Below are positions 1,068 to 52,505 of a stretch of 64,000 nucleotides of DNA, piece by piece. A program made the translations under genes and the position numbers. Source of the stretch: a virus; IMG/VR virus record IMGVR_UViG_3300017774_006254, positions 32,001 to 96,000 of that record; one strand, given 5' to 3'. Below the pieces are notes generated by a model that worked only from the letters and a program-made list of their open reading frames with translations, had not been told where the DNA came from and made no database searches. How positions within the stretch are numbered: the first letter of the stretch is position 1; every line of letters begins with the position of its first letter.

Positions 1068-1883
1068 TCAGCCGAGCATTCCGGAGAAGATGTGACGAGC
1101 GAACACGCCGCCCGCGTAGCCCTGATCGCCCGAAGCGAAAGACTTCGAGACGCGGCGGACCTGAGGCCTGGACTGCATGGGAATCGCGCCGTCCGTAGGC
1201 GTGATGGTGGTGACCGCTTCCATGCGGTTCATCGAGCTGTCGACTGCACCTTGGTCACCGGGCTCGCCAAGGTCGCCGATGCCAGAGATGCCGTCGCCAG
1301 AGTCGCCGAGGCCGCTCATCGGCTGATCGACGTACTCACCGATGCCAGCCGCGGCGTACATCGTGCCGAGACCAAGCATTCCCTTGTAAGGCGCGCCCGC
1401 GTGGGAGATGTCGTATCCACGACCCATCCCAGAGAGCATGCCTTCGTTGTAGTAGCCCGCCGTAGCCGTTGGAGCCGCAGTCGCCGGAGCGCTTGCGACA
1501 GCCGGAAGGATGGCAGCTGCTGGTGAGCCGCCGAGCATCGGCATGTTGCGAATGAACGATTCCGATGCAGCAAGCCCCGCTCCGATCACCGCCGCATTGG
1601 CCATTGGGCCGCTGACGAGGGAAGGAAGCGAACGCTGGGCAGCGAAGTAGGCCGGGATGAGAACGGCCGCAGCGGCAACCTTGCCATACCGTGGGTCGGC
1701 AAGCAAGCTGATTTTGCTGGAGGCGATGTTTCCAGCGACACGGGTGGCGACAAAGCCAACCGTGCCACTGAGAACCGGACTTACGACGTCCCGCACGATG
1801 TCAGAGTCCAAGAAATTCTTGAGAATCCGACGGACTCCCCGCTTCGAGCGGGCATTTTTGCGACTGGTACGGCGACGTGCCAT
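1068..1883 (-). CDS. Virion membrane/core protein, paralog of the C-terminal part of 1931..4696
   Basis: Basic N-terminus, 2-3 hydrophobic segments, an EYVDQPMSG motif and the C-terminus GYAGGVFARHIFSGMLG, shared with the neighbouring ORF. Confidence 0.7.
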   Translation of the reverse strand: MARRRTSRKNARSKRGVRRILKNFLDSDIVRDVVSPVLSGTVGFVATRVAGNIASSKISLLADPRYGKVAAAAVLIPAYFAAQRSLPSLVSGPMANAAVIGAGLAASESFIRNMPMLGGSPAAAILPAVASAPATAAPTATAGYYNEGMLSGMGRGYDISHAGAPYKGMLGLGTMYAAAGIGEYVDQPMSGLGDSGDGISGIGDLGEPGDQGAVDSSMNRMEAVTTITPTDGAIPMQSRPQVRRVSKSFASGDQGYAGGVFARHIFSGMLG

Positions 1884-1930: not shown

Positions 1931-4696
1931 TCAGAGCATTCCGCCGAAGAGATGACGTGCGAACACGCCGCCTGCGTAGCCCTTGCCCTCTGGCGTGACG
2001 AGCGATGCGTTGATCTCGCGATCAAGCGGCATCTGGCCCGTGACCGGAAGCGCTCCGGAGACTGGCATCTCGATCGACGCCCACGGCGGCTGGCGCTTGG
2101 AGTACATGGCGGCCAGGTCTGCATCCGCTTCGCCCGAGCCCATTTCATCGGACCCGAAGCCAGCTGCGGCCTCCATGACGCCGCCTTCCATGGCGTTCAT
2201 GGCGCCATCAATTCCGGCCATGTTGCCCGGATCGATGCCCTCGGCGTACGAGCCGACGCCCGCTGCCGCGTACATCATGCCCATGCCGCTCATCGGCTGA
2301 TCGACGTACTCGCCGGTGCCTGCTGCGGCATAGAACGCGCCCATGCCGTTCATCGGCTGGCTGACGTACTCGCCGATGCCGTTGACGTACTCACCGAGGT
2401 ACGCAGCAGCGCTTGTTCCCGCCGACACGCGCTGAATGACGCGGTCAGCGAGGGCCAGGCCCATGCCGGTGACGAGTGCGCCACGATGACGCCTCACGAT
2501 GCCCACCTTGGTCGCGAGACCAAGCGTTGCAGCGATGCCGAGGATGTTCGCGGCGATCTTGGTGTTCGAGGCGCCCGAAGCGTCCGAAGCGCCCGAGTCA
2601 AGCATGCCTCGGACCGCGCCGATGTTCGCGACACCGTTCGAGAGCAAGCGTGCTGCGATGAAACCAGCGGTGCCGCCAAGAACTGGCGTTGCGACATCAA
2701 GGATCGCGCCCATGCCGTTGCGACGAACGCCACGACGCGAACCACGACGACGACGTGAGCTGCGACGATTCATGACCACGTACTTCTGATTCCTGCGCAT
2801 CGACGACCTCTTTCTCGACGAACGACGCCTTTTGTTCGCCGTCATCTTCCTGCTTGACTTCCTGGACTTGCGCCGCCCGTACCATGCGGGGGGCTTGCGC
2901 CAACGGCTGTAGCGCCTGCGCTCCGCGTATCCACCAGTGGTGGCGCGTGCGTGCGCGTCCTTCGCAGCTCCGCCGAAGCGGAATTTGCGCACGTACGAGT
3001 GCTGCGAGACGTGCGGCGGAACGAGGACCGGATAGCCCGCGTTGCGGAACTTCCTGCCGGACTTCGGGCCGTACTCGACGAGCTGGTAGTAGCGGCCCTT
3101 GGGCGTGCCGACTCGGCTGGAGCCTGAGCCTCGGTACTTGACCTTCGAGACGGCCAGCATGTTGCGCGTCAAGCGCGAGCCACGACGGCGCGAACCACGG
3201 CGTGATCCGCGACGCGAACCGCGACGCGAACTGCGGCGCCTGTTCATGACCACGTACTTCTGGTTGGCCGTCACACGACGACGCGAACCACGACGACGGC
3301 GTGAGCCTCGACGCGATGAACGACGACCATTGGCCGTGGCGTACATCACATTCTTGCTCATGCGACGGCGCGAGTTCCGGCGAACCGAACCCCGACGCGA
3401 CCTGCGACGACGGCGACCGTTGGCTGTTGCGTACATGGTGTTCTTGCTCATCCTGCGACGTGAGTTGCGACGAACCGCTCGGCGCGAACCTCGGCGCGAC
3501 GAACGACGTGACGATCGGCGCGACGCGCGACGCGACCGGCGACGACCATTGGCCGTCATGCGGCGCTTCCTGCGACCACGGTACGTGGCGCCAACCGCGT
3601 AGCCACGCTTCGAGGAACCACGGGGCTTGCCACGCCTGCTGGTGAGACGACCAGCCGAACGCGGGATCGGGTAGGTGAGAATGCTCGGGCGTCCAGAACG
3701 GCTGAGCGGAAGTCGACCAACCCTCGTGATCGTGGGCATCAGCCCGCGCGTGAGGTACTTGTCGATGTACTCGCGGCCCGTCGTGCGAACACGCTTGCCA
3801 TGAAAGTAGCGCTTCTTGCTGGCGCGCCTGCGGGACGAACGGCGACTGCGCTTGCGCCCATTCGCCTGCATGCGGCTGTTGCGGCGACGGCGCGCTGCTG
3901 CACGCGAAGCCCTCGTCGAGTGGCGCTTGCTTCCGCGAGCGACGGCCACACGGCGACTGCCCCTGCGCGAAGACTTCTTCGAGGTCTTGCGTGACGTCTT
4001 GCGGGCCCTCTTCTTTGGACCAGTGCCAGCCTTGCGCGTGAGCGCGGCCTTGCGACCAGCCCGACGACGCGACGTGCGACGCGCTGATGTCTCGCGAATC
4101 GAAGCTCGGCGACGAGCCTTTCCGCGAGGGGTCTGCCTCGATGCGCGACGGCGACGACCACGCGACGAAATGGACATGCCACCCGCCGAACGCGTCTCAG
4201 TCACAGCCTCATGATCTTGACCACCACGAGCAGCTGCGCCCATTCCTGCGTACATCTCGTCTTCGTCGAACCCGTAGTTGCGACGAAGCCCATTGGACTT
4301 CATTGCCTTCCTCAGGGCGCTGATGTTGTATGCCATTCCACTTCTCCTCTTAGGGTTCCTGAGCATCGAGCCAGGGATCGCTTTGGTTAGGACCGTTCCG
4401 TACTCATCGGTCGCGTAGAGACGAGCTTTGCCTCGGCCCTTTCCGGTCTTGTCCGGATGACGCTCCGCCCAAGACTTCGCACCTTGCAGCGTCCTGTACT
4501 GCGGGCTTTCATGGATCTGCTTCCTACGACCAGAGATCCATTGAAATGGATTTTGCTGCGGAGGACGGCCTGTGTTCACGACAGTCAGCGCATTGACCCC
4601 AGGGTTCGAACGAAGACCACGATTCGGCTCCATGCCAGGCGATCTCTCGTACTGGCGCGCCGACTGCTTGGTGCTTCGTTTGTAGACTAGGGCCAT
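1931..4696 (-). CDS. Arg/Ser-rich protamine-like DNA-condensing core protein with a C-terminal membrane domain
   Basis: 921-aa ORF with roughly 500 aa of RRSSRRGSRR-type low-complexity sequence, then hydrophobic helices and GEYV repeats. There is an internal RBS (GAGGAG) and ATG at 4336. Confidence 0.75.
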   Translation of the reverse strand: MALVYKRSTKQSARQYERSPGMEPNRGLRSNPGVNALTVVNTGRPPQQNPFQWISGRRKQIHESPQYRTLQGAKSWAERHPDKTGKGRGKARLYATDEYGTVLTKAIPGSMLRNPKRRSGMAYNISALRKAMKSNGLRRNYGFDEDEMYAGMGAAARGGQDHEAVTETRSAGGMSISSRGRRRRASRQTPRGKARRRASIRETSARRTSRRRAGRKAALTRKAGTGPKKRARKTSRKTSKKSSRRGSRRVAVARGSKRHSTRASRAAARRRRNSRMQANGRKRSRRSSRRRASKKRYFHGKRVRTTGREYIDKYLTRGLMPTITRVGRLPLSRSGRPSILTYPIPRSAGRLTSRRGKPRGSSKRGYAVGATYRGRRKRRMTANGRRRSRRASRRSSRRSSRRGSRRAVRRNSRRRMSKNTMYATANGRRRRRSRRGSVRRNSRRRMSKNVMYATANGRRSSRRGSRRRRGSRRRVTANQKYVVMNRRRSSRRGSRRGSRRGSRRRGSRLTRNMLAVSKVKYRGSGSSRVGTPKGRYYQLVEYGPKSGRKFRNAGYPVLVPPHVSQHSYVRKFRFGGAAKDAHARATTGGYAERRRYSRWRKPPAWYGRRKSRKSSRKMTANKRRRSSRKRSSMRRNQKYVVMNRRSSRRRRGSRRGVRRNGMGAILDVATPVLGGTAGFIAARLLSNGVANIGAVRGMLDSGASDASGASNTKIAANILGIAATLGLATKVGIVRRHRGALVTGMGLALADRVIQRVSAGTSAAAYLGEYVNGIGEYVSQPMNGMGAFYAAAGTGEYVDQPMSGMGMMYAAAGVGSYAEGIDPGNMAGIDGAMNAMEGGVMEAAAGFGSDEMGSGEADADLAAMYSKRQPPWASIEMPVSGALPVTGQMPLDREINASLVTPEGKGYAGGVFARHLFGGML

Positions 4697-6752: not shown

Positions 6753-7142
6753 TTATCCACGCACTTGGATTCGAAGCATAGCTTTCAGTAGTGCGCGCAG
6801 GCCCGGAACCAAATCGAGCTTCAGCGCGTCTTCGGCATCGGCCCAGCGCATGTCGCTCGATTCCCAGTTGGGTTTGGGAGTGCCAGTCCACGCTGTGCAC
6901 ATGTACGTCGTCAGAGTGCCCCATTTACCTCTGGACTCGGCCACTTTTAAGAGCCCTTTTACTCGCAAATTAGCTTCTTCGAGGGTCTCGCGGATGACTG
7001 CCTGTCGCGGTGTTTCTCCGGGATCGACCTTCCCCATGGGGGTATTCCACCGGTCCGGCATCCATGGGGCTGTCGAGCCTCGACGCAGGAGAAGGATGCG
7101 CCCTTGCTTGTCCACAAGGATGCAAGCTGCGGCGTCCGTCAC
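6753..7142 (-). CDS. Nudix hydrolase
   Basis: Nudix box GKVDPGETPRQAVIRETLEEANL; GTG start overlaps the upstream TGA. Confidence 0.85.
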   Translation of the reverse strand: MTDAAACILVDKQGRILLLRRGSTAPWMPDRWNTPMGKVDPGETPRQAVIRETLEEANLRVKGLLKVAESRGKWGTLTTYMCTAWTGTPKPNWESSDMRWADAEDALKLDLVPGLRALLKAMLRIQVRG

Positions 7143-7423
7143 CTGACCGCTCGTCGTGAGTTCTTCTTCATGTTCGACGCGCCGAAAAAGACAGCGGCTG
7201 CGACGCCCACAAGGCCTGCCCAGCCAAGCACCACTGGCCACCCAATAGCCTGCCGAGGAGGTGGCGTTGGGTCTGAAGCTTGCCCAAGAGCCCGAGCTTG
7301 AGCAATCTCCATTGGGGAGTGGCGACAAGGTGCCGTTGAGATCCGCAACTCGTGGGGTCCCATACAGCGACACCTCGACGTCACGACACCGCACCGGCAT
7401 CTCTCGATGTAGTGGCCCATCAC
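7139..7423 (-). CDS. Small membrane protein with Cys-rich N-terminus
   Basis: CRC..CRC, ALGQ, TM helix, tail MKKNSRRAVR. Confidence 0.6.
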   Translation of the reverse strand: MMGHYIERCRCGVVTSRCRCMGPHELRISTAPCRHSPMEIAQARALGQASDPTPPPRQAIGWPVVLGWAGLVGVAAAVFFGASNMKKNSRRAVR

Positions 7424-7719
7424 TTCCTTCGGAAAGCGAAGAAAGCTCCAACGCCAAGCAGGAGCGCTCCACCGATGAGGTACGGGGTGTACGAGACCTC
7501 AGGCGCCTGTCCGTATGGGAGTCCGGTCGCGGGGTTGATCGCGCCGTACGGCATGCCTGTCGCCGGGTTCATTGGAACCTGGCCTGCGGTTGCGGAAGGA
7601 TCGGCAGCTGGAGGGGTTCGCCCCGCTGCGATGAGCTGCGCCGCAGCGGTACCCACTGCGGTCGTAATTGCCGCGACATCCTCAGCTGTGGTTCCCATCG
7701 ATCTTGCGTACGACATCAT
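7420..7719 (-). CDS. Small membrane protein (MSY family)
   Basis: MSY start, NPATG(M/L)PYG repeated twice, C-terminal TM and FRRK. Confidence 0.65.
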   Translation of the reverse strand: MMSYARSMGTTAEDVAAITTAVGTAAAQLIAAGRTPPAADPSATAGQVPMNPATGMPYGAINPATGLPYGQAPEVSYTPYLIGGALLLGVGAFFAFRRK

Positions 7720-7910
7720 CTACTCCTTCGGTTGCGTTTGACACGACGACGAGCAACTGCGTATGCCGCCCAGCTCAAGGCAACCGCTGCGACTCCAAGT
7801 GCGATTGTACCGCCGATGACAGTGTTCGCCACAGACGTGACGGTCTGCTGAATGGCATGCTCAACAGCTGGCGTGGACTGCCCAAGAGCGCGAATGTGTT
7901 GGTAGCTCAT
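7716..7910 (-). CDS. Small membrane protein (MSY family)
   Basis: MSYQHIRALGQ, TM helix, tail VKRNRRSR; ATGA coupling. Confidence 0.65.
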   Translation of the reverse strand: MSYQHIRALGQSTPAVEHAIQQTVTSVANTVIGGTIALGVAAVALSWAAYAVARRRVKRNRRSR

Positions 7911-8539
7911 TTTCGCCTGTTCCTTCGCACTCGTCCACGAGGGCTGTAAGCAAGAGACCGCGCCGTCCGCTGCGACACGTAAACGGCCGCCCCAACAAGA
8001 CCAATGGCTACCACAGCCGCAGAGCCGATGATGAGAGGCGAGGTGGGAGGTGTCAGACCAACCGTGTCTGGTGGATCTTGCGGAGATGTGCGCGGCGGAG
8101 GATCGGGGACCGGACCGACCGGATACACGTAAACGTCATCCCGAAGGGGAGGCATGATGATCCTGTATCTGCGCAGAATGATTTGTGATCGCGGGCTGAT
8201 CTCCAACGAGGCCCGAAGCAAAGCATCTCGAATGGAGGTCGCATAAGCCACAGCGGGACGCTCACTCGTCGGCCTCCAGCGCGCATACAAAAAACCACCC
8301 GTGACCCACCTGACATCAAGAACAGTCCCCATAGAAGACAGCGTAGACCGAACGATCGCTTTTGCCGTCTCAGCCTGCTCTGGGGTGATGTTCCTGACGA
8401 CCAAGTTTGCGTCGAGAGCTGGGACAAACCCATAAAGCCCAACGCCAAGCCTCGTGACGCCAACAGAGAGACCTTGGACCTCAGTTGTGTTTGCTGTCGG
8501 AATGGAAACCGGAGTTTCGCCAGAAAGTGCGTAGCTCAT
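7907..8539 (-). CDS. Membrane-anchored virion protein (MSY family)
   Basis: MSYALSG start at 8539, C-terminal TM, tail VRRNRRK. Confidence 0.65.
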   Translation of the reverse strand: MSYALSGETPVSIPTANTTEVQGLSVGVTRLGVGLYGFVPALDANLVVRNITPEQAETAKAIVRSTLSSMGTVLDVRWVTGGFLYARWRPTSERPAVAYATSIRDALLRASLEISPRSQIILRRYRIIMPPLRDDVYVYPVGPVPDPPPRTSPQDPPDTVGLTPPTSPLIIGSAAVVAIGLVGAAVYVSQRTARSLAYSPRGRVRRNRRK

Positions 8540-9102
8540 CGAAGCCTCCTGCGGCGGTTGAACGTGAGCTTGGACAGCGTCTTGATTCTCGCGTAGTTGT
8601 TCAACAAGTACCCCGCACTCACAGCGCCTGCGATACCGATGACAGCCCAAGCCATGAGCGTGTAGTTCGCCGAACGAACAAGATTTGGTTGCTCATCCTC
8701 AGAGAGCCGAGCGTACTGCGTAGGACTTGATCCCGTCAGCGCTCTGTATCGATCTTCGAGCAGGTTGTACCTGTTGACGTACTCCTGGGCCGGAGAGATC
8801 GATCCTTGCGCCCACCATGTAGAAGCCGTGTGGTTGAACGCGAGCCACTGATTTCGCAGCTCGTCCCAGTCAGCGAGAAACCGCGTGCCGACAGCGTTGG
8901 CTCGAAGCGCAGCTCGCCGTGGGATGATGTCACGGTCAAGAGACGTGATCTGCCCGTTGATCTGGTTCAACCACGCCCTGACTTCGCCAGGAAGCCAAGC
9001 CAGCCGACTCGGAGTCACCAGTTCGCCAAGAGACGAACGATTCGAGCGCATCGAGCACCCGCAACCGAGCCCATGCACGTGCGGGCGCAGTGCGTAGCTC
9101 AT
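8536..9102 (-). CDS. Membrane-anchored virion protein (MSY family)
   Basis: MSYALRPHVHGLG start at 9102, helical domain, TM, tail LTFNRRRRLR. Confidence 0.65.
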   Translation of the reverse strand: MSYALRPHVHGLGCGCSMRSNRSSLGELVTPSRLAWLPGEVRAWLNQINGQITSLDRDIIPRRAALRANAVGTRFLADWDELRNQWLAFNHTASTWWAQGSISPAQEYVNRYNLLEDRYRALTGSSPTQYARLSEDEQPNLVRSANYTLMAWAVIGIAGAVSAGYLLNNYARIKTLSKLTFNRRRRLR

Positions 9103-9647
9103 GACCGCCTCCGCCTCCTGCGGTTCGCGCGCACCGGTGCTCCTGCAAGCATGAAGTACGCACCCAAGCCAACGAGAGCCGTGCCACCAAGGATCCACGG
9201 AAGGAGGCTCCTTCGACTCACCTCGACCTCAGCAGGCTTCTCCTCCAAAGCTGACTCTGAGGTCGCCGAAGTGTTCCCTTGGGGCCGTGGCGTGACCGTT
9301 GGATCGGCGACCCGCTGGAGAGCCTCAAGACGGGTCGCCAGAGTCTTGGAAACGAGAACACGCGGCGTAACTGCGATGTTCGTTGGGAACGTGGACGGCA
9401 CTGGCAGTCCTGGTCCCGCTTCCGTCAGACCAGCAATCGTTAGGGGGCCTGCACGACCGTCGACCGCGATGGAAGCCTGCCCCCGAGAAGCGCGGAAGGC
9501 GTTGACGGCACGTTGAGCCCAGGTGGCCGTGGTGTCCCAGTACCGAGCGTCAGGTGCGTATGCGCGCCGTTCCCGATCGGGGCCCAAGGCCGTCGATGCG
9601 GTAGGCACGAACGAGTAGTCGATTGCTTGACCCAGATACGACATCAC
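9099..9647 (-). CDS. Membrane protein with peptidoglycan-binding-like motif (MSY family)
   Basis: AQRAVN...IAVDGRAGPLT resembles PG_binding_1 (VDGxxGPxT); TM; tail VRANRRRRRRS. Confidence 0.6.
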   Translation of the reverse strand: MMSYLGQAIDYSFVPTASTALGPDRERRAYAPDARYWDTTATWAQRAVNAFRASRGQASIAVDGRAGPLTIAGLTEAGPGLPVPSTFPTNIAVTPRVLVSKTLATRLEALQRVADPTVTPRPQGNTSATSESALEEKPAEVEVSRRSLLPWILGGTALVGLGAYFMLAGAPVRANRRRRRRS

Positions 9648-9683
9648 ACCCTCTTCTCGCAGCGATCACCTCGCGGCGTTTCT

Positions 9684-10355
9684 TCAGATCTCTTGCCCGT
9701 CGTCACGCAACGCGTCGACGTAATCTTCCCACTGCTTTCCACGTTTTCCAGTGGTAGCTGGGTACAGGCCAACCGTGCCATCGCTGTGCACGATCGCCGA
9801 AAGGCCTTCCTTCTTGCACAGCTTCTCGAAGCCCTTGTCCACCTTGTAGGCGGGCTCGAACTTGATGTTGATCAAAGGAGAGATCTCCTTGAACTTCGCG
9901 CGCTTTGCATCGTCAGCATCGCTGAAGACCTTTGCTCCCGCGACACCGGCCTTTGCGAAGTAGCGAGTCACCTGGTCAGCGAAAGCACTACGACTCGGAC
10001 TCCACCCTCCCGCGCTCTCGCCCTCATCCGGAAGTGCATACGAGGCAGACCCCTCGTCCTCATCATCACGGCTGTTCTTCGTAGGAGCCTTGATGTTTTG
10101 AAGCAAGAAGTACCCGCCGATTCCAGTGCCGACGGCGGTAACCAGCCAGCCCCAAATTGGGAGCGGGCCCATCTTGCGCTGCAAGAACCCCGTCTCCTGG
10201 ATTGGAGCGGGAGCTTGCGCGAGAGACAAGGGGTAAACCGGCATCCCGTTCACGTTCATCATGGGCGCAGGCTGCGCCGCCATGACCGGAGTTGGAGCTG
10301 GAGCCGCTTGCCCGCCGCCGTAGATTTCATCGAGATCGAATTGTTGTTCAGTCAT
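9684..10355 (-). CDS. Single-pass membrane protein
   Basis: TM LPIWGWLVTAVGTGIGGYFLL followed by a soluble domain. Confidence 0.6.
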   Translation of the reverse strand: MTEQQFDLDEIYGGGQAAPAPTPVMAAQPAPMMNVNGMPVYPLSLAQAPAPIQETGFLQRKMGPLPIWGWLVTAVGTGIGGYFLLQNIKAPTKNSRDDEDEGSASYALPDEGESAGGWSPSRSAFADQVTRYFAKAGVAGAKVFSDADDAKRAKFKEISPLINIKFEPAYKVDKGFEKLCKKEGLSAIVHSDGTVGLYPATTGKRGKQWEDYVDALRDDGQEI

Positions 10356-10415
10356 GCCCAGCCTTCAATTGTGAGTTCGAGATCCACCCAAAGATCTCGT
10401 CAGGTTCAGAACAGC

Positions 10416-11492
10416 TCAGTCCCATCCCATGTCGAGGCTTCGGACTTCCCCGGGCTTCGCGATGCGCACGTTCTTTGGCTTCAACGTGACGGTCATCCCG
10501 CCGCCCCTGTGGGTATTCGGCTTGCCCATCTCAGTGGCCAGTCGCGTCGCTTCAGTTTTGCTCGAAGCCAAGGCAGTGTTGTATCCGCCGCCGACCCAGT
10601 TCCACACCCACAGCTTCTTGGTGCTCTTGGGACGCGGGTTCCGAGTGACACGTCGCGAACTGGACTTTCGCTTCCGCTTTGGAATCGAGAAGGTCGTCTC
10701 TTGGGTTTTGATCTTGCAGCCAGGCCCGTGGCCGCGCTTGCCCAAGTCGGGCTTGCCACATGACGGACACGGAAAACTGCCAGCGTTCATGCGCATGCGT
10801 GATCGGCGCCTCGACCCGCGCCGACGCCTATTTGGCGTAACCACCCTCTTCGGCTTCAGGGCGAAGAATGCAAGCGCCCCCACAGCGAGCGTGCCTCCCG
10901 CGAGAACACCCCACATCGGGATGCCTCCAACGGTCTGCGTGAGGAAGGTTGGTTCAGCACTGCCGTCGTAGTACGGCTGCGCTCCAGGCATAGCGCCGGG
11001 AATGGTCGCTGGAGTGGTCGCTGGGGCCGGAAACAAGCTCGTCAGCAAGCCCGTCACCGCCGAGGTCGCAGCTGCCCCCGCATTCGCACCGCTGGAAGCA
11101 CCAGGGCTACTGGATGCGCCAGGAGACGAGGGAGGCGACCCGTACGTCCAGGCGTGCGTGTTTGTGACGCGCGATCCTGAAAGCAGAGCTTGAATCTGCG
11201 CGCCCATGCGAGCGAAGGCCTGATTCACAGCTTCGCCAGTCAGCGCACCCGACGCACGGACGGTCACCCAGAGACTGCCCGCGGGGACGCCACCAGGCGC
11301 AGAAGGGCCGCCCCAACCACTGCCGACGATCGTCCCTGGGAACGAAGCTGCGGCGGTACGCAAGGCCTGAAGCTTCTGCTCAGCCGTGCCGTTGGCTTGA
11401 ACAAGGAATCCGCCGACGAATTGCTGACCTGGCACGTAGCTCGCGCCCGTCGCCAAACCACCAAGACCACTGAACCCTCTTGTGTAACTCAT
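10416..11492 (-). CDS. Membrane virion protein with Arg-rich tail and CxxC motif (MSY family)
   Basis: MSYTRGFSGLGG start at 11492; TM; VTPNRRRRGSRRRSR; CPSCG...HGPGC. Confidence 0.65.
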   Translation of the reverse strand: MSYTRGFSGLGGLATGASYVPGQQFVGGFLVQANGTAEQKLQALRTAAASFPGTIVGSGWGGPSAPGGVPAGSLWVTVRASGALTGEAVNQAFARMGAQIQALLSGSRVTNTHAWTYGSPPSSPGASSSPGASSGANAGAAATSAVTGLLTSLFPAPATTPATIPGAMPGAQPYYDGSAEPTFLTQTVGGIPMWGVLAGGTLAVGALAFFALKPKRVVTPNRRRRGSRRRSRMRMNAGSFPCPSCGKPDLGKRGHGPGCKIKTQETTFSIPKRKRKSSSRRVTRNPRPKSTKKLWVWNWVGGGYNTALASSKTEATRLATEMGKPNTHRGGGMTVTLKPKNVRIAKPGEVRSLDMGWD

Positions 11493-11848
11493 CGCCTGCT
11501 CCTTGGGCGCCTGTTGGCGCGAACTTGCCTCGACGGCTTCAGGGTGTTCCATGCGAACAGCCCAAAGCTGCCAATCGACAACGCGAGTCCAATCAGCGAG
11601 TAACGCTCCATCCGCTGGGCTCGCTGCTCTTCCTTCGACAACTCCGTGACTTGGCCAAGGTGCGACGACTGAAGGTACGGACGACGCGGTCCGAGATGCT
11701 CAGACCGAAGACGAGGCGGCTGCGTGGTGTAGATGAATTGCGACACCGAGCCCCGCTGACGCTGCGGCTGACTGAGGTCCGCAAATACCCACGGGTTCGT
11801 AACTCCCCATGGCTGATAGCCAAGGGCTCTGTTCACTCGGTAGGTCAT
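11489..11848 (-). CDS. Small membrane protein (MTY)
   Basis: MTYRVNRALG, HLGQ, TM, tail VRANRRPRSRR. Confidence 0.6.
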   Translation of the reverse strand: MTYRVNRALGYQPWGVTNPWVFADLSQPQRQRGSVSQFIYTTQPPRLRSEHLGPRRPYLQSSHLGQVTELSKEEQRAQRMERYSLIGLALSIGSFGLFAWNTLKPSRQVRANRRPRSRR

Positions 11849-15235: not shown

Positions 15236-15832
15236 TCAGTCAATCTCGAAAATGGTGTATTGCTTGATCCGACGAAGCATATTCCCTGTCCGGCGCCCCG
15301 CAACAGGATCGAGGACCCACCACTGCTTCGTGCGGGGATCTTGAGCACGCGCAAAGACGTGCGTATGAATTTTCGGCTCGCCAGCCAACTGCGGCTTGAA
15401 GCCACAAGTGACAAACTGACCTCGGGCCCCGATTGTCAGACAAGATGTAGCAATCGCGAGAGCGATGTCGTCACAGTCGCAAGCGGCACGCCCCGCAAGG
15501 GCATCAGCCAGAATACGGTCGGGACTGCGAATCAGCTCAACGTGCAGAGGATCGCGCGTGTACCTGGTTGCGTTTCCCCACCAGCGGGAGATCGCGATGC
15601 ACTCGCTCGAATAGTCCTTCGGCCGCACGTTGTTGATGATCTGTTCCGTGTGTCTGCGGAAACTGATACTGCGCTCCCCCTGCAACGCATTCTGCACCAT
15701 CACTCGCGGGTCGACGAGACCCTTTGCGAGGTTGATCATCACGGCAACAGTGTGATCAGTACCTCGGTATGGTTCCGTGGTACCAACTGCGTTGTTGTAG
15801 GTCGGTGAGTATGAGTTTGCTCTGAGCTGCAT
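15236..15832 (-). CDS. Transglutaminase-like cysteine protease (candidate maturation protease)
   Basis: Catalytic-triad motifs ACDCDD, HTHVF and WWVLDP; YTRDP upstream. Confidence 0.8.
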   Translation of the reverse strand: MQLRANSYSPTYNNAVGTTEPYRGTDHTVAVMINLAKGLVDPRVMVQNALQGERSISFRRHTEQIINNVRPKDYSSECIAISRWWGNATRYTRDPLHVELIRSPDRILADALAGRAACDCDDIALAIATSCLTIGARGQFVTCGFKPQLAGEPKIHTHVFARAQDPRTKQWWVLDPVAGRRTGNMLRRIKQYTIFEID

Positions 15833-48537: not shown

Positions 48538-49383
48538 ATGAGCCCAGTCTTCTTGATCGACATCTCCTCGTACCTGCATCGCGCAATGCACGTGATTCAC
48601 GGAAAGCTTGCCTCTGAAGCCGATCCGTCAGACATCTCGTTCACCGTTCACGCAGCGAACATGCTCGCCAACACCATGTTTCGACTTCACATCGAAAGAA
48701 TGGCCGTGGTGTTCGACTCGACCGAGCCATCAGCTCGGTGCCAAGTCTACCCGCAGTACAAAGCCGACAGGAAGCCTCACACTCCTGTGTTCGCGGCCCA
48801 GATGCCTCGGTTCATGGCAGCCCTGGCTGACGTCGGAGTAAGCGTCTTCGAAGAACCTACCTTCGAAGCCGACGATATCATCGCGACTCTGGTAGGAGAT
48901 GAAAGAGTTCCGTACTCGATCGTGTCACACGACAAAGACCTGCTTGCTCTTGTCGACGATGCGTCAGAGGTGGCCGTCTACAACCCAACATCTGACAAGT
49001 GGCACCGCATGGATGACATCTTCTCCAAACTGGGAGTGTTTCCATGGCAGTTGCATGACTACATGGGACTAGTCGGAGACACGTCAGATGGAATCCCAGG
49101 CGTTCCTGGGATTGGAGCCAAGACCGCTTCAGCTCTCGTGGTGAAGTACGAAACGCTAGAACGTATCTACAGCGCGGAATGTCGCGAGCTTGTAGAAGAT
49201 GATCTGTCCAAGAAGCAGTTCTCTTCGCTTATTGAGAGCGAGGAAGTGGCTTTCTTGTCCAGGAGTCTAGCCAAGCCAATCATCTGCCCCGAGTTGATTA
49301 TGGTTGGGCATGGGCCCCTCTCTGCGCCGAGTCCCGACAGGATACGAACGGCCGTACAAGACTACGAGAGGAGGAATCGCTGA
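48538..49383 (+). CDS. 5'-3' exonuclease (PolA N-terminal / FEN family)
   Basis: LIDISS, VVFD, YKADR, FEADDII, SHDKDL, LVGDTSDGIPGVPGIGAKTA. Confidence 0.92.
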   Translation: MSPVFLIDISSYLHRAMHVIHGKLASEADPSDISFTVHAANMLANTMFRLHIERMAVVFDSTEPSARCQVYPQYKADRKPHTPVFAAQMPRFMAALADVGVSVFEEPTFEADDIIATLVGDERVPYSIVSHDKDLLALVDDASEVAVYNPTSDKWHRMDDIFSKLGVFPWQLHDYMGLVGDTSDGIPGVPGIGAKTASALVVKYETLERIYSAECRELVEDDLSKKQFSSLIESEEVAFLSRSLAKPIICPELIMVGHGPLSAPSPDRIRTAVQDYERRNR

Positions 49384-52300
49384 TGCCTTTGGTGCGGACG
49401 ACCCACAACTTCGAACTTCCGATGACGCCTCGGAGCCCAGACGTTCGTACCTGGACGCCTCAGATGGGCACGCAAGACCTCGTGTACTCGCTTGCTGTTG
49501 GTGCTTGTGCTCCGACAGCCGAGACACAACTTCAGCGGCGCGCTGTCGAGGCCGTGAGCGTTCCATTGGCCAAGTCAGGAGGCGGCTCTGTCGTCACGAT
49601 GAGACCATACCAGAACGAGGCCATCGAAGCCGTTTCAGCGGCCTGGAAGAGTGGTTCGAAGTCGCCATTGATTGTCTTGCCGACGGCTTGCCACCGTGCC
49701 GGACAAGGCGTCCTCATGATGGATGGAACCGTTAGAAACGTAGAAGACGTGCAAGTGGGAGATGTCCTGCTCGGGCCAGACTCCAGGCCTCGAAATGTCC
49801 TCAAGACGCACCGCGGGTTCGGTCAGATGTTTGAAGTCATCCCTGTAAAAGGAAAGCCCTTTGTCGTGAACGGCGAACACGTGCTCACGCTGTACCGAAC
49901 CCCCCAGAAGCCCAACGCTAAGTACCCAAGTCAAAGATCGGCCATCGTTGACGTGACGGTGAATGATGTACTGACCAAGTCAAAGACATGGCGTCACATT
50001 CACAAACTGATCCGAGCGAGCGATGTAGAGTTTTCCGTCAGAGAGGCCCCGGTCATTCCTCCGTACTTCCTCGGCCTTTACATCGCAGACGGCTCCATGG
50101 CACAGCCCAATCAAGTTGCAGTGTCCAAGCCGGACCCGGAGGTAAGAGCTGCCTGCATGGAGCTTGCGGAAAGCTGGGGACTCAACATGCGAACGGACGT
50201 CGGTGGGAGTGGTTGCCCTTCGCATCACCTCTCAGGACTCACGTCTCCAGGAAAGACTCGCGGAGACAACCATATCCTGACGGAACTTCGCAAGCTTGGC
50301 CTCATGAACATTCCCTCCGAGGAACGCTTCATACCAGACAGTTACAAGTTCGGGTCGATTGCGGTGAGAAGAGAGCTTCTGTCCGGCTTCTTAGACGGAG
50401 ACGGACATCTCCATCGAACTGACTACGACGTCATTACGAAATCGAAGCGACTGTCCGATGACATCGTCTTCGTAGCTCGGAGCCTGGGGCTTGCTTCGTA
50501 TTCCGCTCCTTGCGTGAAGGGGTGCCAGAACGGGTTCATCGGGAATTACTTTCGCGTGACCGTATCCGGGGAAACCTCAAAACTGAAACTGAGGATACCG
50601 CGCAAGCAAGCGCCTCTCAGAGCCCAGAAGAAGAATCCTCTCGTTGCTGGATTCAGCGTGAGAAGACTTGAAGAGGAGCCGTTCTTCGGCTTCACACTTG
50701 ACTCAGATCACCGATACCTGCTTGACGACTTCACGATCACGCACAATTCGGGAAAGACGATCATCTCCGCCGAAATCATGGCTCGCACGTACGCGGGCTC
50801 TGGAGAGAAGAGCCTGTTTATTGCGCATCGTGAGGAACTGCTCACTCAAACGGTCGACAAGGTAAGGCTAGTGAGTCCCAACACTCGCGTTGGGTTGGTG
50901 CAGGGGAAGATTGCAGAGTTCGGCCGCGATGTGACCGTCGCCTCGATTCAAACGGTCGGCCACAGTAGCAAGAAGAAGCTGCGTGAACTCATCGACGGCG
51001 GACCGTACAGAACCATGATCATCGATGAGTGTCATCACGCTACGGGCAAACAGTATCGCGATGTCATCTCCGCGTTGATGGAAGCGAACCCCTCGATGCT
51101 GATCATGGGAATGACAGCAACACCCGGCCGGTCCGATGGCCTAGCTCTCGATGCCGTGTTCGACTCGGTGGCATTCGAGAAGGACATCTTCTCGATGATC
51201 CGCGAGGGATGGCTCGTTCCTCCCGTTGGCTTCGCGCAGAAGATCGATGTCGACCTCGACAAGGTTGCAACAGGTAACGGTGACTACGTATTGAGTCAGC
51301 TGTCGAAATTGATGAACACGCCCAAGGTCAACCGCGCAGTTGTCGAAGCGTGGCAGACGCATGGGCTCGACCGGAAATTCATCGCCTTTGCTTGCGACGT
51401 CGCTCACGCAAAAGCCCTAGCGCAAGAGTTCAACGACAGTGGATACCCCGCAGCGGCCGTCGACGGGAAGATGAAGAAGACGGAACGCAAGAGCATACTC
51501 ACTGCATTCCGCGAAGGCGCATTGAAAATCCTCGTGAACTGCAACATCTTGATCGAGGGGTACGACGATCCAAGCGCCGAAGGAGTCCTCTTCGCGCGCC
51601 CGACACAGAGCCAGGGCCTGCACATCCAGTCGCTCGGAAGAGGACTTCGCCTGTTCCCTGGGAAGACAGAGTGCCTGGTGATCGACTGCGTTGGAAACAG
51701 CGCGAAGCACCGCCCAGTGCAGCTCGCTTCCCTCGTCGGCTTTGATCCGCAAAGGAAGTACAAGGGCTTCGCCGGGTTCGGAAACGAGGAAGAGGAAGAA
51801 ACTGAGAAGCCAGCCGAAGTAGGCGTCGACGATGCTCGACTTGGTCAAGCGTCAGAACTTGGATTCGGATTCGCTCCGCTGAAAAGCACGTACCAGTGGA
51901 GAGAAACTTCTTTGGGGTGGATCATCCAGATACCGAAGATCGGCTACTACCTAGTCGCATGGAGCGACAAGACCAAGGTGATGGCCACGATTCGCTTCTA
52001 TGACCAAAGAAAAGGGCGCAAAACAGACAAGCCTCGCGAGGTGACCCGAATGCCGATCGAGTTCGACATGGCCTATGGGCTTGTTGAAGGAGAACTTGAC
52101 CGAATGTTCCGCGCCAAAGACTTGCGACGCGAGGAGAAGAAGGACGAGACAGGCGCAGACCTCGTCTCGTTCGTCCCGCTCGATGATGGTCTGGATGAAG
52201 ACCTGTCCGTCAGAGAAGAGCAGATGCTCAAGGACGCCGAGTGGCGAAACAAGCCCAAAACAGAGAAGCAGCGAGAGTGCCTCGAATCGCTGGGCGTGAA

Positions 52301-52505
52301 GATGAAGACGATGCCCGAGCTTGCTGGAGAAGCCAGCGACCTAATCACCATTATGCGCGTTGAGAAAGAGCTGAAGATGCGCGTGCCCGCGACGCTGAAG
52401 CAGCTGAACTTCCTTCGCTTCCACGGTATCCCGTTCTCCGAAGACATCACCAAGGGCCAGGCCGCCAAACACATCTGGCTTCATCGAAAGGCGACTGAGG
52501 TATGA
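49383..52505 (+). CDS. SF2 (DExH) helicase containing an intein
   Basis: RPYQ, LPTA|intein|SGKT, IIDECHH, MTATP, EGYD, QSLGRGLR. Confidence 0.92.
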   Translation: MPLVRTTHNFELPMTPRSPDVRTWTPQMGTQDLVYSLAVGACAPTAETQLQRRAVEAVSVPLAKSGGGSVVTMRPYQNEAIEAVSAAWKSGSKSPLIVLPTACHRAGQGVLMMDGTVRNVEDVQVGDVLLGPDSRPRNVLKTHRGFGQMFEVIPVKGKPFVVNGEHVLTLYRTPQKPNAKYPSQRSAIVDVTVNDVLTKSKTWRHIHKLIRASDVEFSVREAPVIPPYFLGLYIADGSMAQPNQVAVSKPDPEVRAACMELAESWGLNMRTDVGGSGCPSHHLSGLTSPGKTRGDNHILTELRKLGLMNIPSEERFIPDSYKFGSIAVRRELLSGFLDGDGHLHRTDYDVITKSKRLSDDIVFVARSLGLASYSAPCVKGCQNGFIGNYFRVTVSGETSKLKLRIPRKQAPLRAQKKNPLVAGFSVRRLEEEPFFGFTLDSDHRYLLDDFTITHNSGKTIISAEIMARTYAGSGEKSLFIAHREELLTQTVDKVRLVSPNTRVGLVQGKIAEFGRDVTVASIQTVGHSSKKKLRELIDGGPYRTMIIDECHHATGKQYRDVISALMEANPSMLIMGMTATPGRSDGLALDAVFDSVAFEKDIFSMIREGWLVPPVGFAQKIDVDLDKVATGNGDYVLSQLSKLMNTPKVNRAVVEAWQTHGLDRKFIAFACDVAHAKALAQEFNDSGYPAAAVDGKMKKTERKSILTAFREGALKILVNCNILIEGYDDPSAEGVLFARPTQSQGLHIQSLGRGLRLFPGKTECLVIDCVGNSAKHRPVQLASLVGFDPQRKYKGFAGFGNEEEEETEKPAEVGVDDARLGQASELGFGFAPLKSTYQWRETSLGWIIQIPKIGYYLVAWSDKTKVMATIRFYDQRKGRKTDKPREVTRMPIEFDMAYGLVEGELDRMFRAKDLRREEKKDETGADLVSFVPLDDGLDEDLSVREEQMLKDAEWRNKPKTEKQRECLESLGVKMKTMPELAGEASDLITIMRVEKELKMRVPATLKQLNFLRFHGIPFSEDITKGQAAKHIWLHRKATEV
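49689..50747 (+). mobile_element. Intein with LAGLIDADG homing endonuclease (353 aa)
   Basis: Starts CHRAGQ and ends ITHN before Ser; LAGLIDADG-like motifs FLGLYIADG and LLSGFLDGDG. Confidence 0.92.

Follow-up and report, generated by a model that had tools for sequence, protein, structure and literature searches.

An extremely basic, mostly disordered protein with a conserved hydrophobic-x-x-Asn motif is a candidate genome-condensing core protein in a lineage of large prokaryotic viruses

The window analysed here is a 64,000-nucleotide stretch comprising bases 32001-96000 of the 161,502-bp IMG/VR record IMGVR_UViG_3300017774_006254, a viral genome with direct terminal repeats that CheckV rates as complete. 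On its minus strand lies the gene P0001. A sequence-only reading had proposed that this gene codes for a 921-residue, protamine-like polyprotein punctuated by about 20 Asn motifs, which would be cut from a membrane-tethered precursor to condense the genome. The minus-strand frame from 1931 to 4696 is indeed open over 921 residues, and its coding score of 130.7 from a codon-usage gene caller is among the highest in the genome. By calculation from the translation, the protein contains 180 Arg, 96 Ser, 50 Lys and no Cys, and its charge is split between +196 in residues 1-660 and -8 in residues 661-921. The gene and its parts are as follows, with coordinates given for the window here and below unless marked as genome coordinates.

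1931..4696, minus strand: the whole P0001 gene, coding for 921 amino acids (102.3 kDa, pI 12.0, net charge +188, no Cys)
4292..4696, minus strand: N-terminal conserved domain (N-domain), residues 1-135, from the alignment; AlphaFold2 (AF2) gives a predicted local distance difference test score (pLDDT) of 60-71 at residues 60-115
4334..4351, minus strand: internal start Met121, with AAGAGGAGAAGTGGA and an ATG at 4336
3809..4186, minus strand: basic linker 1, residues 171-296, rich in Arg/Lys/Ser/Ala and predicted to be disordered
3662..3808, minus strand: conserved mid-domain 1, residues 297-345, with YFHGKRVRxTGREYIDKY..PLSRSGRPS..YPIP, from the alignment and AF2
3161..3661, minus strand: Arg/Ser repeat tract, residues 346-512, with 10 hydrophobic-x-x-Asn motifs and a 30-residue duplication
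2897..3160, minus strand: conserved mid-domain 2, residues 513-600, with MLAVSK..QLVEYGPKS..GYPVxVPxHVS..YVRKFRFGGAAKDAH..GY, from the alignment
2798..2817, minus strand: internal start Met633 (MRRNQ...), with AGAAAGAGGTCGTCG and an ATG
2717..2896, minus strand: basic tract 3, residues 601-660, with family-wide MTAN, MRRN, (QKY)VVMN and VRRN, from the alignment
2417..2716, minus strand: hydrophobic Gly/Ala-rich helices, residues 661-760, with PVLGGTAGFIAAR.., NILGIAATLGL.. and GMGLALADR.., kept in both clades of relatives described below
1934..2416, minus strand: acidic Gly/Met/Tyr-rich tail, residues 761-921, with GEYVxQPM(S/N)G(L/M)G, MYAAAG and MEAAAG repeats

The N-domain has the signature MALVYKRS..GMEPN..NPFQW..ARLYxxDEYG..GMAYNIxALRRAMRxN and is predicted, with low confidence, to adopt a small alpha/beta fold. 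Basic linker 1 is Arg/Ser-rich in some homologues and made of Lys/Ala (AKPKK-type) repeats in others, and its length varies; what the family retains here is charge, not sequence. The Arg/Ser tract shows a 12-nt periodicity in its DNA and SRR(R/G/S) tandem repeats throughout residues 346-512. Both internal duplications described previously are present at the DNA level, one as a 68-nt repeat (78% identity, spacing 90 nt) that corresponds to the VRRNSRRRMSKNxMYATANGRR unit and the other as a 33-nt repeat (85% identity) that corresponds to NQKYVVMNRR. The tail carries a further 60-nt DNA repeat and closes with the conserved end TPEGKGYAGGxFARHLFxGM. Mid-domain 2 is predicted to consist of beta-hairpins and one helix, and a profile search found no PDB-sequence or Pfam match for it up to E 10. 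A Sso7d/Cren7-like DNA binder, suggested by a likeness to KVKYRG, was dropped on this result.

The AF2 model of the whole protein, built from a 34-sequence alignment, has a mean pLDDT of 46.5. Only small islands and the helices exceed 55-70, and about 70% of the chain is therefore predicted to be disordered. VIA-align and Foldseek/BFVD searches with the model returned generic helical hairpins or noise only. Because the model is poor and the structural matches are of this kind, we draw no conclusion on the fold of P0001.

The sequence-only reading had recommended searching viral metagenomes for homologues of the C-terminal domain, and this search was productive. A word-indexed search with the C-terminal 261 residues (the C-module) recovered 33 homologues of 515-950 amino acids from metagenome contigs of up to 171 kb, plus one metagenome-assembled genome (MAG) from NCBI. 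A HMMER scan of 1.84 billion cluster representatives gave only 55 C-module matches at E <= 0.001, made up of long forms of 570-941 amino acids and short forms of 206-344. One domain plan is common to the aligned homologues: N-domain, linker, mid-domain 1, Arg-rich repeats, mid-domain 2, basic tract, helices and tail. These alignments bear on the idea that P0001 is a chance open frame in GC-rich repetitive DNA, which draws some support from mirror open frames on the other strand (for example, 1901-2758 and 3099-3602). However, the reading frame stays open across 515-950 codons in more than 40 homologues, in which the insertions and deletions are whole codons. The folded islands and invariant residues are also conserved, and the coding score is high. 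A chance frame has a negligible probability, and for practical purposes the idea is refuted.

P0001 sits in a long co-directional gene cluster together with two genes that recur among its relatives.

1068..1883, minus strand: P0002, 271 amino acids, with an Arg-rich N-terminal tag ending in ILKN, followed by the same helices, GEYV repeats and C-terminal end as P0001
93..905, minus strand: P0003, 270 amino acids from MPKIVG, beta-rich and the most conserved gene of the cluster (66-86% identity)

On sequence grounds, P0002 is a stand-alone copy of the C-module. The order basic gene, P0002-like gene, P0003 is kept in five relatives, and P0003 is always downstream of a large basic gene. Neither P0001 nor P0002 nor P0003 matches a Pfam family (E up to 1) or a PHROGs entry (E up to 0.1), and tblastn against 50,697 phage records gave no match for any of the three. 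ESM Atlas searches with P0003 and the C-module returned unnamed viral clusters only.

Searching with a P0003 profile brought in 18 more contigs from viruses, of which many measure 110-171 kb, together with 8 from MAGs. Viruses whose P0003 is 31-36% identical to that of the window form what we call the distant clade, and their contigs include many in this size range. In the distant clade, a protein of 600-900 amino acids with 23-28% Arg+Lys is encoded directly upstream of P0003 and follows the same plan as P0001. Its N-domain carries RPNPMGVTTLxxVNGRGAY and is followed by a basic linker, RRM(R/K)(R/K)N stands right before the hydrophobic helices, and GMGEYF and AAAGMG repeats are present. In one lineage (L025:2348-5116 and L036:2183-5117), the N-domain is a separate open reading frame (ORF) of 150-170 amino acids, followed by a 750-amino-acid ORF with the remainder. 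This arrangement reads as a gene fission within the basic linker. Four MAG contigs with P0003 relatives are binned as Phycisphaeraceae, Planctomycetota, Pirellulales or Lentisphaeraceae, which is a hint, not proof, of a host in the Planctomycetota or the wider Planctomycetes-Verrucomicrobia-Chlamydiae group, its basis being MAG binning only. The MAG contigs (L033-L040) also include relatives binned as Deltaproteobacteria, Acidobacteriota and Pseudomonadota.

All the Asn motifs listed in the sequence-only reading were found in the translation, at the following residues.

MQANG 276-280; MTANG 380-384; VRRNS 408-412 and 438-442; MSKN 416-419 and 446-449
ATANG 423-427 and 453-457; VTANQ 475-479; VVMNR 482-486 and 640-644; LTRNM 509-513
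MTANK 618-622; MRRNQ 633-637; VRRNG 657-661

The figure of about 20 such motifs describes the Arg/Ser-rich subclade well but does not extend to the other homologues, which have 0-18 under the same mask. Within residues 171-661 of P0001, 13 of the 17 Asn residues have M, V, L, I or F at position -3, compared with 1.9 +/- 1.3 in shuffles of this segment, and none of 20,000 shuffles reached 13. The internal duplications inflate this count slightly, and the same coupling is seen across 44 homologues. In the close clade (34 homologues), 75% of 347 Asn residues in basic context have M, V, L, I, F or Y at -3 against a background of 11%, and in the distant clade (10 proteins) 68% of 63 Asn residues in basic context have a hydrophobic residue there. 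In both clades the hydrophobic enrichment around Asn is confined to position -3. Viewed from the other side, one third of the hydrophobic residues in basic context have Asn at +3, for which the background is 4%. Across the whole proteome, a hydrophobic residue stands at -3 of Asn with a frequency of 0.287, against a general hydrophobic frequency of 0.256, which rules out a genome-wide bias as the cause. Since the proteome as a whole lacks the coupling, which is confined to Arg-rich contexts, the pattern is a context-specific short linear motif.

The motif is also conserved by position. In the homologue alignment, the border residues Asn 135, 512, 636, 643 and 660 are invariant or nearly so, approximately 5-7 motif sites at domain borders are kept family-wide, and at the conserved sites Asn is never exchanged for Gln or Asp. 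Spontaneous Asn-Gly deamidation or cleavage by design was rejected, given that the residue after the Asn is Gly in only 8.5% of motifs, which is 1.3 times background. A twin-arginine (Tat) signal reading of VRRILKN and VRRNGMG, which precede the helices, was rejected by inspection; the spacing is unlike RRxFLK and the site is internal in P0001.

The same motif recurs at the ends of other proteins. Eight proteins of this genome end in the motif followed by poly-Arg, whereas each shifted register yields one. They include the following cluster (the slash marks the end of the motif).

7716..9647, minus strand: four small membrane-type proteins, with C-termini VKRN/RRSR, VRRN/RRK, LTFN/RRRRLR and VRAN/RRRRRRS

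N-terminal Arg-rich tags closed by the motif occur in this genome in P0002, in a SprT-like protein and in 2-3 weaker cases, and approximately 25 termini with motif-closed tags were found in four relatives. Short paralogues of the C-module have 1-6 units of Arg-rich sequence plus motif directly before the conserved helix LFGADxMRDVVxPVxGGTAGF. Whether the tag is N-terminal or C-terminal, the motif invariably lies where tag meets body, and its polarity does not change.

The first ~660 residues of P0001 amount to a mostly disordered polycation that would bind and neutralise the packaged double-stranded DNA (dsDNA) without sequence specificity. A nonspecific, neutralising mode of binding is suggested because the polycation is so large and because its linker keeps charge and not sequence. 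The last 261 residues might fix the nucleoprotein to an inner membrane or shell, with residues 661-760 as a possible membrane anchor. By simple arithmetic, one copy supplies approximately 190-230 positive charges against 323,000 genome phosphates, and several hundred copies would therefore be needed for substantial neutralisation. We consider it likely that P0001 is a DNA-binding core or tether protein.

The composition, which predicts strong nonspecific binding to polyanions, would also suit a protein that acts outside the virion, such as a polycation produced in the course of infection to compact the host nucleoid or shut it down, or to organise a compartment for replication or assembly. However, in both clades the gene lies in a co-directional cluster, beside the most conserved gene, which is beta-rich and of structural type, and many small membrane proteins that share the tag. 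A function outside the virion is, in our estimate, improbable.

In its junction placement, in the restriction of constraint to the N-terminal side of the Asn and in its many copies per tract, the motif resembles the sites of maturation proteases. By this analogy, it might be the recognition site of a virion maturation enzyme that splits the Arg-rich, DNA-bound pieces from the protein bodies. We hold this view of the motif as a maturation cleavage site tentatively, at somewhat less than an even chance. If all motifs of P0001, a member of the Arg/Ser-rich subclade, were cut after Asn, the products would include peptides of 15-28 residues with charges of +9 to +15, two small basic domains (104 and 109 residues), a basic piece of 139 residues and the 261-residue C-module, which would be the equivalent of mature P0002. 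The Met121 and Met633 starts probably add nested shorter products. In its full form, the proposal makes P0001 the principal basic protein of the core in large prokaryotic viruses (110-170 kb) of an unclassified lineage, with its motif cut in maturation; we find this plausible at a level close to, and just below, an even chance.

A candidate enzyme for cleavage at the motif is encoded in the same module.

15236..15832, minus strand: P0037, 198 amino acids, putative transglutaminase fold, with Cys120, His158 and Asp175

P0037 is present in all five relatives tested, the distant clade included. Across six orthologues, with identities as low as 42%, its Cys120 (DCD), His158 (HVF) and Asp175 (DPVAG) never vary, and they stand in the order and spacing of the core of the transglutaminase-like superfamily. 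Three of the six orthologues match Pfam Transglut_core (PF01841, best E 2.1e-7), although the copy in the window is below the threshold for this family and gave no match. P0037 is the only conserved candidate for a processing enzyme. Self-processing at its own N-terminal LRAN was rejected, as the Asn is not conserved and orthologues have LRAH or LRRS.

The polyprotein proposal has held up in several respects. The gene is real, conserved and located in a structural cluster, its product is extremely basic and mostly disordered, the Asn motifs are a genuine and deeply conserved linear motif at module borders, the surrounding gene module also encodes a conserved Cys-His-Asp enzyme, and the hydrophobic C-terminal helices are conserved. 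However, no adenain-like, T4-like or HK97-like maturation protease was found. A six-frame search of the whole genome detected no adenain (PF00770, Peptidase_C5) at E up to 0.1. The prohead proteases S77 (PF03420) and S78 (PF04586) had no match in the genome, where the S77 model is also silent in control genomes and distant homologues may escape. The description of a membrane-tethered precursor fared less well, as the hydrophobic segments reach a Kyte-Doolittle value of only 1.5-1.6 over a 19-residue span, which is borderline for an anchor.

This last value is among a set of observations that speak against cleavage of a simple polyprotein. In several short paralogues the sequence opens directly with MRRN, which leaves no tag for an enzyme to take off. 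Pro follows the motif Asn in 6% of cases, 2.6 times background, including the conserved SNPGV, NPFQW and RRNP(R/K)W, and a bond before Pro resists most endopeptidases. Two neutral heptapeptides, QKYVVMN and TMYATAN, are conserved between two Asn residues each, a pattern more suggestive of a binding element than of a spacer. Because Lys/Ala-rich homologues have long motif-free linkers, small peptides are not a general product of the family. The conserved internal starts could give shorter products without a protease, and the AF2 model is poor. In addition, we know of no papain-fold or transglutaminase-fold enzyme that cuts after Asn, the LRAN of P0037 is not conserved, and a role for this protein in cell-wall hydrolysis or cross-linking is equally conceivable. 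In view of this evidence we kept two rival explanations of the motif, namely docking without cleavage and chemistry at the Asn side chain.

The internal starts bear on the first of these. The ribosome-binding site and ATG reported at 4336 are present, with AAGAGGAGAAGTGGA preceding the ATG of Met121. This Shine-Dalgarno (SD)-like sequence uses the rare Arg codons AGG and AGA (15% of the Arg codons in P0001) and is retained in 6 of 7 orthologues, and the homologue P0026 is annotated with its start at the Met121 equivalent. The site before Met633 reads GGAGGA in 7 of 8 relatives and AAGAGG here. Its product would have 289 residues and an architecture like that of P0002 and the short forms that start with MRRN. 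Both starts may thereby add nested shorter products without proteolysis. With the internal starts and the separate N-domain ORF, the modules of P0001 are separable by at least two routes besides proteolysis.

In the docking explanation, P0001 is an uncleaved tether or scaffold, or is made as the nested Met1, Met121 and Met633 products only, and the motif docks onto a partner in the shell, membrane or packaging machinery. Other proteins that bear the motif would be drawn into one condensate of DNA and protein along with P0001. The conserved internal SD and ATG sites, the paralogues with bare MRRN, the conserved hydrophobic heptapeptides flanked by Asn and the tolerance of Pro after Asn are all consistent with docking, as is the failure to find a recognised maturation protease family in the genome. 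However, docking needs no placement exactly at the tag-body junction with the same polarity, nor does it explain why only the N-terminal side of the Asn is constrained. We regard it as unlikely.

The second rival makes use of P0037. This enzyme might act on the Asn side chain, either forming isopeptide cross-links to Lys that tie the core into a network or deamidating Asn to Asp, which would reduce the charge and loosen the DNA at entry. Enzymes of the transglutaminase fold act on side-chain amides, with transglutaminases and protein glutaminases acting on Gln and PNGase on glycosyl-Asn, and the only conserved candidate enzyme appears to have a transglutaminase core. It also fits that Asn at the conserved sites is never Gln or Asp, and Pro after Asn would be no obstacle. 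However, known transglutaminases use Gln rather than Asn, Lys is scarce in the Arg/Ser-rich subclade (50 Lys versus 180 Arg in P0001), and the junction placement is left unexplained. Side-chain chemistry appears to us quite improbable.

Cleavage can be developed into a more specific scheme, in which large bacterial viruses, perhaps with Planctomycetota or related hosts, would package their dsDNA as a nucleoprotein resembling chromatin. An Arg-rich tag plus motif, acting as a signal throughout the virus, would load the giant polycation and at least a dozen other proteins onto the genome, and an Asn-directed enzyme of transglutaminase or papain fold would then sever the tags. We consider this complete scheme doubtful. 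If it were true, prokaryotic viruses would have evolved their own equivalent of adenovirus core maturation independently, and the protease would have a specificity undescribed for the fold.

The SprT-like protein, encoded at genome 154755-155798 (L010:18755-19798, minus strand), has a zinc protease domain (Pfam E 1e-11), and its N-terminus is an Arg-rich tag that ends in VARN. Because proteases of the SprT/Spartan type depend on DNA, the protein may be a packaged enzyme. As the processing enzyme this zincin was set aside, since a protein search found it in only one of five relatives, and it is therefore not a universal partner.

Several known systems resemble P0001 in part. The adenovirus proteins pVII, pre-mu (pX) and pVI, with the adenovirus protease (AVP, or adenain), are Arg-rich proteins that neutralise a dsDNA genome, a role that P0001, with 180 Arg and 50 Lys, would suit by composition. 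Adenoviruses combine a non-tailed particle with a short cleavage motif that has a hydrophobic P4, and the P0001 motif is hydrophobic at -3 of Asn. Their small, highly basic mu peptides stay on the DNA, and terminal peptides are cut from several unrelated virion proteins. The precursors sit on the DNA, along which the protease that cuts them slides (PMC4246237). However, P0001 has no sequence similarity to these proteins (Pfam E up to 1), no adenain was found in the genome, and the P0001 motif has Asn where adenain sites read (M/I/L)XGX-G or (M/I/L)XGG-X. P0001 strings its segments together in one chain of 102 kDa that also bears the hydrophobic C-module, its virus infects prokaryotes, and its cleavage is a proposal.

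In composition and presumed role, two proteins of insect viruses are like the tract at residues 346-512. Ascovirus P64 (64 kDa, pI 12.2) has tandem Arg/Ser-rich repeats and condenses a dsDNA genome of 100-200 kb, and baculovirus P6.9 is an Arg/Ser-rich, protamine-like protein of 6.9 kDa (PMC6163548). P64 differs in having N-terminal two-cysteine adaptor motifs (pfam08793), whereas P0001 has no Cys and no Pfam match, and in being without a hydrophobic C-module, Asn motif or known processing. Protamines and P6.9 are small primary products (below ~15 kDa), whereas P0001 has 102 kDa and would give small peptides only if its motifs were cut. P0001 may thus work like the adenovirus core proteins, P64 and P6.9 but is a member of none of these groups, given the lack of a sequence match, a Cys adaptor and an adenain and the different motif.

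The T4- and phiKZ-type proteases of tailed phages with HK97-fold capsids are serine enzymes of S77 or herpesvirus-assemblin type. Like the P0001 motif, their sites are a recurrent short motif read on the N-terminal side, and they bound the propeptides and the internal or ejection proteins of large phage heads. In SPN3US, gp245 cuts after A-X-E with Val at P4, and propeptides are cut at several sites (PMC10052503). The P1 residue is Glu in SPN3US and Asn in P0001, the phage propeptides are not polycations, and neither an S77-type protease nor an HK97 capsid was found in our searches of the genome. African swine fever virus (ASFV), a membrane-containing dsDNA virus, makes the core-shell polyproteins pp220 and pp62, which are cut by the viral cysteine protease pS273R. 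This is a clan CE, SUMO-type protease with the cleavage motif Gly-Gly-X, and the products are folded shell proteins. These are not polycations, the cleavage motif is another one, and there is no sequence similarity to P0001.

The general view is that bacterial viruses pack their DNA under pressure in an essentially naked state, and protein-condensed genomes and protease-matured cores are hallmarks of the eukaryotic adenoviruses, baculoviruses, ascoviruses and ASFV. Genome-condensing core proteins are not established for viruses of this host domain, and P0001 is a candidate for one that may also undergo a maturation step. The conserved protein of net charge +188, the structural module with no recognisable tailed-phage hallmark and the shared junction motif point to a different organisation of a 160-kb prokaryotic-virus genome. 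The hydrophobic-x-x-Asn motif might serve as a search key for cargo proteins in related metagenomic viruses, and both the candidate enzyme and the products expected from cleavage are specified at single-residue level. Nested internal starts would be a second route to several products from one gene.

The searches for particle type were as follows. Among ~60 larger ORFs, a Pfam scan detected neither a terminase nor an HK97 capsid, and likewise no A32 ATPase and no known maturation protease. In six frames, Terminase_6N (PF03237) and the HK97 capsid (PF05065) gave no match, where divergent forms could escape, and no A32 ATPase was found in the six-frame family search of the genome. The AF2 model of P0003 has a mean pLDDT of 49.4, and Foldseek returned nothing for it at E up to 0.001. 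Its VIA-align list is dominated by single jelly-roll capsid proteins, none significant, with a best Z of 4.4 and a root-mean-square deviation of 3.9 over 117 residues. From this model, P0003 is weakly jelly-roll-like. The only hint of a packaging-type ATPase is a faint FtsK/SpoIIIE-like stretch (residues 826-895, E 0.04) in a 953-amino-acid SNF2-type helicase (genome 11789-14650, L006, minus strand). A 336-amino-acid protein encoded on the minus strand at genome 28332-29342 (L007:8332-9342) ranks second in conservation within the cluster, with 59-78% identity among four relatives. It matches no Pfam family and is a possible second protein of the shell.

Met-Ser-Tyr forms the N-terminus of approximately a dozen small membrane-type proteins, and x-G-(L/M)-G often comes next (MSYSGLGQ, MSYTRGFSGLG, MSYALRPHVHGLG). 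These proteins are located at 7420-11552 (minus strand) of the window and at genome 21089-21706, 104516-105229 and 108279-110695. MSY occurs 16 times in the proteome compared with 2.1 expected, and relatives are alike in this respect (MSYAGLG, MSYHGLG). The pattern (Y/M)-x-G-(L/M)-G is also present in the C-module of P0001, as QPMSGMG and QPMNGMG.

Two NUDIX hydrolases are encoded, at 6753-7472 (minus strand) of the window and at genome 151574-152476. One of these genes lies inside the morphogenesis cluster, and there are relatives with a NUDIX gene at the same place. On the plus strand, at 49383-52505, a superfamily-2 helicase (ResIII, Helicase_C) is split by an intein with Hint and LAGLIDADG homing-endonuclease domains.

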